Notes: generated from the sequence alone by a model not told the origin. Positions 24,578 through 25,135 are shown, numbered from the stretch's first letter. The stretch is DNA of 56,846 nucleotides from a virus (IMGVR_UViG_3300010397_000012:1-56846), one strand, 5' to 3'. Program-made: numbers and translations.

Positions 24578-25135
24578 GGCAAATTGGGCGTGGAATGGAG
24601 TGGTCCAGTTAGGCTCGGAAAGTCGAGGCCTGTATTTGCAGGCGGGGCAAGTCGGGGCAAGACACGGTGGTGACTGTTCTGGCTGGTTGGGGCAGGAGTG
24701 GATTGCAGACGCGAGATTGGGTAAGTCCGGCCATCGTGTGGACCTGCAGGCAAGTCAATGAATGCCGAGTAGGTCTATGGTGAGGCGCGGCCTGGCCTGG
24801 CCTGACACTGCAGGTGCGGTCAGGCGAGACGTGATGCGGCAATGTACGGCCCGACATAGTCGGGCAGGCGCGGAGAGGTAAGGCACAGCGCGGACGGGCA
24901 AGTAATTGCACAGCAGGCGTGGTCCGTCGTGTTGTTGTCGGGTCCGTCACGGCTTGTTACGGTGAGGCAGGCGTGGAAAGGCAGGATCGGGCTAGGACAG
25001 GCACGGCGCGCGACGGCAGGCTAGTCAGGGCAAGGAGTAGATGGAAGAGCAGGCCATGACCGGTGTGGCATGTCGCTAAATGGCAAGTTCTCGGTCGGGC
25101 AGGTCTTGTCAGATGTTCGGCATAGGAGCGGTGCA
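24578..25135 (+). ncRNA. Phased pentamer array (GGH-NN)n in ~10 units separated by NGCA; putative guide-RNA array
   Basis: NGCA junctions at 24578, 24637, 24691, 24745, 24809, 24863, 24912, 24966 and 25015 (spacings 59,54,54,64,54,49,54,49, all 5n+4); degenerate units follow at 25048 and 25098. Confidence 0.85.

Follow-up and report, generated by a model that had tools for sequence, protein, structure and literature searches.

VIPR systems (short for Viral Interference Programmable Repeat) are CRISPR-related, RNA-guided DNA silencers first described in 2026 (10.64898/2026.04.26.720920), with companion preprints on their structures (10.64898/2026.04.26.720927) and biology (10.64898/2026.10.15.759431). 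As set out in the text of the first preprint, a VIPR system is composed of Vipr (a small, stand-alone RAMP protein), a vap accessory gene, and guide RNAs (vrRNAs) of 9–16 YNNGG pentamers, in which the Vipr protomers bury GGY and present NN (10.64898/2026.04.26.720920). The double-stranded DNA target reads NNx under a '1-nt skip rule', the skipped base usually being a codon wobble position, and the effect is transcriptional silencing of rival phages and satellites. That text describes internal degeneracy of vrRNAs as frequent and records no self-targeting, while its fig. S18 legend defines 'staggered' arrays, in which vrRNAs overlap by one base (10.64898/2026.04.26.720920). Solo vrRNAs aimed at rival VIPR systems are outlined in the biology preprint (10.64898/2026.10.15.759431). 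Here we analyse IMGVR_UViG_3300010397_000012:1-56846 (the window, meaning the whole stretch of 56,846 bases), a complete virus record with terminal repeats, in which the region at 24585–25017 is very probably the vrRNA array of a phage VIPR system in its staggered form. The locus is an independent environmental example of an already known system and leaves the known picture unchanged.

Anatomy of the array and its relatives

The array lies in a 670-base non-coding gap between the end of a 150-residue open reading frame (ORF) at 24571 and the start of a zinc-ribbon ORF at 25244. On the + strand, positions 24585–25017 are composed of eight back-to-back units of 9–12 pentamers each, every pentamer comprising a dinucleotide (NN) and a G-rich triplet, and every unit ending in AGG plus one base. 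The general form of a unit is N + (NN + triplet)k + AGG, and the pentamer counts fall inside the range of 9–16 described for vrRNAs. The sequence GCAGG recurs at 24638, 24692, 24746, 24810, 24864, 24913 and 24967, and its spacings of 54, 54, 64, 54, 49 and 54 equal 5k+4, which fits a staggered vrRNA array with a one-base overlap. The + strand of the array is G-rich, with a GC skew of +0.25 to +0.34.

The units were delimited with a purpose-written hidden-Markov (Viterbi) parse, independent of the NN lists of a first-pass annotation made from the sequence alone. The five NN lists that the annotation had given for 24582..24862 are exact at period 5 (U1 at 24585-24636, U2 at 24644-24690, U3 at 24698-24744, U4 at 24752-24808 and U5 at 24816-24862), and the Viterbi parse agrees with them. 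The array features are given below; U1–U5 derive from both the period-5 reading and the Viterbi parse, and U6–U8 and the tail derive from the Viterbi parse.

24585..24639, + strand: guide U1, 11 pentamers
24644..24693, + strand: guide U2, 10 pentamers
24698..24747, + strand: guide U3, 10 pentamers, with 1 of 10 triplets canonical GGY
24752..24811, + strand: guide U4, 12 pentamers
24816..24865, + strand: guide U5, 10 pentamers
24870..24914, + strand: guide U6, 9 pentamers
24919..24968, + strand: guide U7, 10 pentamers
24973..25017, + strand: guide U8, 9 pentamers
25022..25114, + strand: worn array tail, short irregular pentamer runs

Across the 81 pentamers, the triplet positions are occupied by G (81%), G (69%), and C or T (80%), the second G being the least conserved triplet position, and the NN positions are variable. 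Within NN, purines predominate and T is scarce at the first base (A 0.32, G 0.35, T 0.11), and G is scarce at the second (0.17). Genes of the phage itself trend alike (G 0.41 and T 0.13 at codon position 1; G 0.19 at position 2), as do 6784 NN pairs of other arrays among the matches listed, giving weak evidence that NN follows the phase of codon positions 1–2.

Tandem Repeats Finder returned only two tiny rows for the region (10-nt and 5-nt), being nearly blind to the array because the units have no common sequence beyond the triplets. An Rfam scan of the region returned no family, and neither program revealed CRISPR-type direct repeats of ≥20 nt with unique spacers there. A blastn search of 24100-25700 against a phage collection gave no match.

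The same architecture is present in other viral contigs. One contig (L002), found via the 150-residue protein (52–54% identical by tblastn and alignment), carries it right after the homologous gene; the base composition of its array is quite different from that of the window, and its Vipr is among rows 71–73% identical to the window protein. Furthermore, the pattern GGCAGG(NNNGG)x5 occurs in at least 123 stretches of viral contigs, nearly all of them single-strand arrays of hundreds of bases. Together with the homologous architecture of L002, these stretches argue that the pentamer pattern is not due to chance.

Among the matches listed, 75 loci have enough flanking sequence for their gene content to be read. 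A vipr homolog adjoins the array on the same strand in 37 of the 75 and a vap homolog in 30; either homolog is present in 44 and both in 23. Where both genes are present, the order is vipr-vap-array in 15 loci, vipr-array-vap in 7 and array-vipr-vap in 1, and a further 21 loci have one gene only. In 31 of the 75 loci, neither homolog is found among the nearest ORFs; these loci may have more distant proteins or be cut off. The arrays of these matches give the junction consensus GGC-A-GGY from 558 junctions, in a logo partly shaped by the retrieval pattern and by the parser, and their unit length ranges from k = 0 to 18.

Vipr, a putative accessory gene and a candidate opposing solo guide

Immediately upstream of the array gap are two genes that, together with the array, make up the module. 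The features of the module outside the array are as follows; the hairpins come from a consensus scan, the vipr assignment from a profile, an AlphaFold2 model and PHROGs, and the vap-like assignment from PHROGs.

23319..23336, + strand: terminator-like hairpin of 7 pairs, then a T run, upstream of the module
23478..24122, + strand: vipr gene, 214-residue stand-alone RAMP (Cas7-like), phrog_4652
24119..24571, + strand: vap-like accessory gene, 150 residues, phrog_15946, its start overlapping the vipr stop
25124..25160, + strand: terminator-like hairpin of 15 pairs, then TTGTTT, directly 3' of the array

The vipr gene, the vap-like gene and the array are all on the + strand and are bracketed by the two terminator-like hairpins, the upstream one of which suggests that the module is its own transcription unit. 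The end of vipr lies 463 bases from the first guide. Both phrog_4652 and phrog_15946 are listed in PHROGs as of unknown function.

A profile built from 38 homologs of the 214-residue protein matches PDB chain 36pp_D, 'SUSP1 Vipr protein', over residues 25–207 (E 8.8e-17), and the window protein as a single sequence matches SUSP1 Vipr with E 0.0038. The AlphaFold2 model of the protein has a mean predicted local distance difference test score (pLDDT) of 89.9. Its top Foldseek matches are chains of type III CRISPR Csm/Cmr complexes (best E 7.7e-6), which, the rows naming the complexes only, are plausibly Cas7-family backbone subunits. In the pairwise alignment to SUSP1 Vipr, R153 and R194 correspond to R138 and R179, both guide-contact residues, while E192 corresponds to D177 and G193 to W178. 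Specifically, two of the four residues that hold GGY in SUSP1 Vipr are identical in the window protein, one is replaced conservatively, and the tryptophan is absent.

The 150-residue protein is predicted with a pLDDT of 93.8 and is mainly helical; a fold search with the model gave no significant match, the only rows being weak ones of winged-helix type (E 0.89 or higher). Homologs of both module genes stand side by side in cultured phages, namely Cyanophage Cy-LDV1 (Vipr 52% identical) and 27 Mycobacterium and 5 Gordonia phage records (~31%), and all are annotated there as hypothetical proteins.

The vipr gene of the window is itself matched by a guide of another phage. In a 70.8-kb phage contig (L010), an intergenic gap contains a lone 9-repeat unit at 2508-2552, with neither a vipr nor a vap homolog among its nearest ORFs. 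The unit matches the window's own vipr at 18/18 specified bases (23889-23915, + strand), in frame at EDMARVETG; the vipr of L048 is matched equally well at the same peptide, and those of L002, L016 and L065 at 17/18. From its sequence, the unit looks like a solo vrRNA against this Vipr clade.

The skip rule was also examined on guides other than those of the window. When 501 distinct guides of other arrays among the matches listed were compared with 485 kb of loci at four skip lengths, matches with 0 or 1 mismatch occurred only with a 1-nt skip. The match free of mismatches is that of the L010 unit on the vipr genes. The sole 1-mismatch match, by a guide of L122, was discarded as a low-complexity artefact: it is a 21/22 match at window position 26838, out of frame, of (AGGGC)n on a (CAG)n run. 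Positions 274-458 of L122 are a simple (AGGGC)n tandem repeat that passes the array pattern, mimics a guide and gives false targets on (CAG)n tracts.

Guide targets and phage context

The first-pass annotation had read the NN strings as gapped guides that skip the wobble base, which coincides with the 1-nt skip rule in the text of 10.64898/2026.04.26.720920, and had assigned one head or packaging motif to each of U1–U5. For U4, assigned to the KIDGxxAL motif of the large terminase (TerL) nuclease, that assignment is borne out. The best NNx match of U4 is 23/24, in frame, at the TerL nuclease motif NKIDGIDALLLA in viral contigs L155-L159 and metagenome contig L162, and the same TerL motif is matched in frame at 22/24 in L160 and at 21/24 in L153 and L161. 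The lead to this target came from sub-threshold in-frame matches, both 17/24, at a C-terminal TerL motif that reads KRIDGVVALIMA in L128 and, in the phage's own TerL, KHIDGVVATLMA.

A scan of the viral contigs with the core of U4 (the central nine NN, 18 specified bases) returned nine loci. Eight of these fall in frame on that TerL motif, with 3 to 5 of the 6 remaining bases also matching; among the eight genes, L155 and L156 were scanned against Pfam and the others are read as TerL from the alignment. The ninth locus, L154, matches at 19/24 in an unidentified gene. Readings of U4 with a skip of 0, 2 or 3 nt reach at most 16/24 on the same loci. An 11-NN pattern of U4 found two further places in metagenome contigs, the TerL fragment L162 and a gene of L163 considered below, and none in genome contigs (genome_contigs).

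We compared each guide with 500 shuffles of its own NN order on ten loci of the targeted element family (125,576 bases). None of the 500 shuffles reaches the 23/24 of U4, a result with some circularity, since the U4 core had been used to retrieve eight of the ten loci and a profile of their TerL the other two. The figure for U5 is not circular: the portal gene of L164, confirmed by Pfam, is matched in frame by U5 at SQDVARTPIR with 17/20, a score reached by 7 of 500 shuffles, which supports the proposed portal motif.

The remaining assignments stand less firmly. The best match of U1 (16/22) is indeed in frame on the proposed HK97-capsid motif, at GVIVPLSEELV in L156 and L158, and is equalled by 92 of 500 shuffles, so it is not significant. 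The best scores of the other guides were likewise reached by many shuffles: 258 of 500 for U2 (15/20), 491 for U3 (14/20), 358 for U6 (14/18), 323 for U7 (15/20) and 176 for U8 (14/18). U2, assigned to the Walker A motif of TerL, does match there at 14/20 (GNGKSPL[CG]SG in L132, L133, L148 and L149), but this is chance level, and a better 15/20, also chance level, is found at GIGKTGLLVK in Terminase_4 small-terminase genes (L220, L198). Similarly, U3, assigned to the P27-type small-terminase motif, matches Terminase_4 (P27-type) genes at EW[ND]R[LM][IV]A in L127 and L141, at a chance-level 14–15/20. U6 recurs in the same Terminase_4 genes at 13/18, again at chance level. The U2, U3 and U6 matches thus agree with the annotation's reading while scoring no better than chance. 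A Terminase_4 gene was not detected in the targeted small contigs, and only L165 has one.

When four of the motifs named in the first-pass annotation were run as literal patterns over a six-frame translation of 1.58 million residues, KIDG..AL occurred once and the other three were absent. The expectation that all five guides hit a single element is not supported: in no contig do two or more guides reach 80%. Taken together, the decoding is partly supported, U4 being verified and U5 supported, with the other guides unproven.

The 9-NN core of U1 is absent from the viral contigs (viral_contigs); U1 with up to 3 mismatches gave 2 matches against 1 for its control, which is chance, in 401 genomes belonging to the same order as the Nitrosomonas metagenome-assembled genome (MAG) that contains L164; and U2 gave 3 matches against 2 for controls in 5 genomes. 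In the head modules of 27 relatives of the phage TerL (326,063 bases), none of the eight guides exceeded shuffled controls at any skip length, which places the targets outside the close kin of the phage. Within the window, the best matches of the guides equal those of NN-order shuffles, and self-targeting is thus not seen.

The targeted loci L155-L159 and L164 are contigs of 7–15 kb, and the annotated ones, L156 and L164, carry an integrase together with their own head and packaging genes. L156 (10,365 bases) has a TerL 28% identical to that of the phage, a Phage_capsid gene and an integrase. L164 (10,160 bases, from the Nitrosomonas MAG) has an integrase, an HNH gene, TerL, a major head protein, a portal and a head protease, and its TerL is the closest to the element family among genome loci (57%). 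No tail genes were found on the pieces of L156 and L164, and guide-like runs in the targeted elements amount to weak hidden-Markov false positives. A profile of the targeted TerLs found 80 loci in genomes and MAGs, most of them bearing labels of diverse proteobacterial classes and a few the labels Verrucomicrobiota, Bifidobacterium, Acidimicrobiaceae, Actinomycetales and Bacteroidetes.

We take these small contigs to resemble the capsid-forming satellites of the literature on phage-inducible chromosomal islands (PICI); alternatively, they may be fragments of larger prophages. On the former view, the targeted elements would be satellites exploiting this phage.

The closest genome relative of the phage TerL, by contrast with the mostly Proteobacteria-labelled target family, lies on a contig of a Gemmatimonadetes MAG (54% identity), and no array was found in the 10 kb upstream of that TerL. 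Downstream of the array, the window encodes an HNH endonuclease, a DNA methyltransferase with a ParB domain, the large terminase (27769-29583), a fusion of protease and capsid, and the portal. The methyltransferase gene (26041-27312, + strand), between the HNH gene and the terminase, fuses a ParB-like N-terminal domain to an N6/N4 DNA methyltransferase (phrog_498, E 1e-96) and contains a (CAG)n run at ~26838. One 662-residue ORF (29841-31829, + strand) comprises both a prohead serine protease (Peptidase_S78) and a major head protein (phrog_617). The ORF that closes the array gap (25244-25603, + strand) encodes 119 residues with a CxxC...CxxC zinc-ribbon, has a sub-threshold Pfam match to Anti-TRAP (E 0.0012; 19.3 bits, the cut-off being 32), and has no relatives in the viral contigs.

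Alternative readings and comparison with described systems

By analogy with the SUSP1 and Pseudomonas fulva systems, one Vipr protomer would bind each pentamer of the array, with the G-G-Y triplet buried and the NN pair exposed. The string of NN pairs would then base-pair with double-stranded DNA reading NNxNNx..., and binding would silence transcription. On the same analogy, the array is presumably transcribed and processed, and its guides would form Vipr filaments that silence their targets.

In addition to the partial circularity of the U4 shuffle figure, several observations weigh against reading the region as a VIPR array. Canonical GGC or GGT accounts for 33 of its 81 triplets (41%), versus 72% of 6787 triplets in other arrays among the matches listed, a comparison set retrieved with a GG-rich pattern; either the triplet is read more loosely in this clade or the array is in decay. 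The tryptophan that stacks on the second G in SUSP1 Vipr (W178) corresponds to a glycine (G193) in the alignment, so the binding rules may differ. Six of the eight guides have no target above shuffled controls. Exact full-length NNx matches, which the first-pass annotation had proposed as a check for U4 and U5, number zero for U4 in viral_contigs and in genome_contigs and zero for U5 in viral_contigs; those for U1 number zero in genome_contigs. U4 also matches at 23/24 a flagellar FliH gene (L163 5911-5946, KKIDGIEALLLI), which is probably chance in a very large collection, although it could conceivably be a host decoy site of the kind mentioned in the abstract of 10.64898/2026.10.15.759431. 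Finally, small-RNA confirmation is listed in the text of 10.64898/2026.04.26.720920 for ribozyme-interspersed and single-vrRNA architectures, and not for staggered ones.

Some of these observations could also arise if the array were a real VIPR array that is largely decayed or retired, most of its units being worn guides that have lost either Vipr loading or any matching sequence, with one or two guides still working, which we consider unlikely. The deficit of canonical triplets against that GG-rich comparison set, the single canonical triplet among the ten of U3, the six guides without a target and the visible erosion of the 3' end (25022-25114) are what decay would leave behind. However, the unit lengths and AGG junctions are intact in all eight units, and L002 shows similar non-GGY triplets (TGT, GTC, TGC, GAT). 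Frequent internal degeneracy is, moreover, a described property of vrRNAs in the text of 10.64898/2026.04.26.720920, and the missing targets may reflect searches confined to exact matches. With the periodicity taken as real, it is very improbable that the TerL and portal matches are chance, inflated by amino-acid ambiguity. U1, U2 and U3 are at chance level, the motifs were first recognized by eye, and the FliH match illustrates that chance matches occur in huge collections; yet eight of the nine viral U4-core matches fall in frame at the same TerL motif, none of the 500 shuffles attains the U4 score, and U5 matches the portal of the very genome locus whose TerL is closest to the element family.

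An array of binding sites for a ring or filament protein acting without RNA guidance, either a TRAP-like ring (~11 triplets per 54-nt unit) or a small-terminase pac/cos site, is an exceedingly improbable explanation. It would account for the strand-specific, G-rich 5-nt period with its skew and for the position upstream of the HNH, TerL and head genes, and the weak Anti-TRAP match of the downstream ORF, below its cut-off, would suit it. The latter match, however, comprises 18 residues of a Cys-rich zinc-ribbon motif; the range of unit lengths elsewhere leaves no room for a ring of fixed size; it is vipr and vap, not the terminase, that accompany the array, in changing relative positions; and targets are in frame only under a 1-nt skip. 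A TRAP-like ring, a small-terminase pac site and a G-quadruplex array were dropped in view of the variable unit lengths elsewhere and the Vipr homology.

VIPR matters as a newly described form of RNA-guided DNA recognition with an unusual non-contiguous code. The present locus, detected from sequence alone, belongs to a complete uncultured phage, and it reproduces the published rule with data not used by the authors of that rule. It adds a tail-less staggered form with a sharply conserved GGC-A-GGY junction, and a phage whose own vipr is perfectly matched by a lone guide of another phage. It also adds identifiable targets in the large terminase and portal of ~10-kb integrase-bearing elements with their own head genes, which fits the phage-versus-satellite picture with other target genes.

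It is possible, though doubtful, that the array is a family-wide weapon that works at the level of protein motifs. In this scenario, each guide spells, via codon positions 1–2, the best-conserved peptide motif of a different head or packaging protein (capsid VIVPxSxEL, small-terminase EWxR, TerL KIDGxxAL, portal DVAxTP), the single-A GGC-A-GGY junction serves as punctuation, and guides of different phages are engaged in a layered guide-versus-guide arms race. If so, one short tail-less staggered array would silence a whole family of capsid-forming satellite-like elements despite synonymous drift, the junction would end one Vipr filament and start the next without a handle, ribozyme or tail, and the 18/18 solo-guide match on a vipr of the same clade would point to such an arms race among environmental phages.

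Compared with described systems, the locus is closest to the VIPR systems, with which it shares a stand-alone RAMP, a putative neighbouring accessory gene, YNNGG pentamers, NNx targets, carriage by a phage and aim at other mobile elements. It differs in that its Vipr is only a distant relative of SUSP1 Vipr, its triplets are more degenerate, and its identifiable targets are TerL and portal genes of small integrase-bearing elements, whereas those of the described systems are a satellite recombinase (SUSP1) and lysogeny regulators (P. fulva). Like the type II systems of Escherichia phage SUSP1 and the Pseudomonas fulva prophage, it has ~9–12 repeats per guide, with one protomer expected per repeat; unlike their vrRNAs of ~100 nt, which have a conserved ~40-nt 3' tail (pseudoknot), its guides are tail-less and abut via the 4-nt AGG+N. 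Neighbouring guides of staggered vrRNA arrays share one base, in agreement with the 5k+4 spacing here and with the single A that separates two GGY triplets; the fig. S18 legend and text of 10.64898/2026.04.26.720920 name no junction consensus for such arrays.

More distant likenesses are found outside VIPR. The backbones of class 1 CRISPR complexes (Cas7: Csm3, Cmr4) with their crRNA share the RAMP fold, a protein filament on a guide RNA and periodic flipped bases, whereas the locus here is without CRISPR repeats and, in its non-contiguous guide, 2 bases out of each 5 pair. The (G/U)AG arrays bound by TRAP in Bacillus trp leaders are alike in form only, with triplets and 2-nt spacers on a single-stranded RNA that is wrapped by an oligomeric protein. 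The ORFs neighbouring the array yielded no TRAP family; the array's triplet is GGY rather than GAG or UAG, and its spacers carry information.

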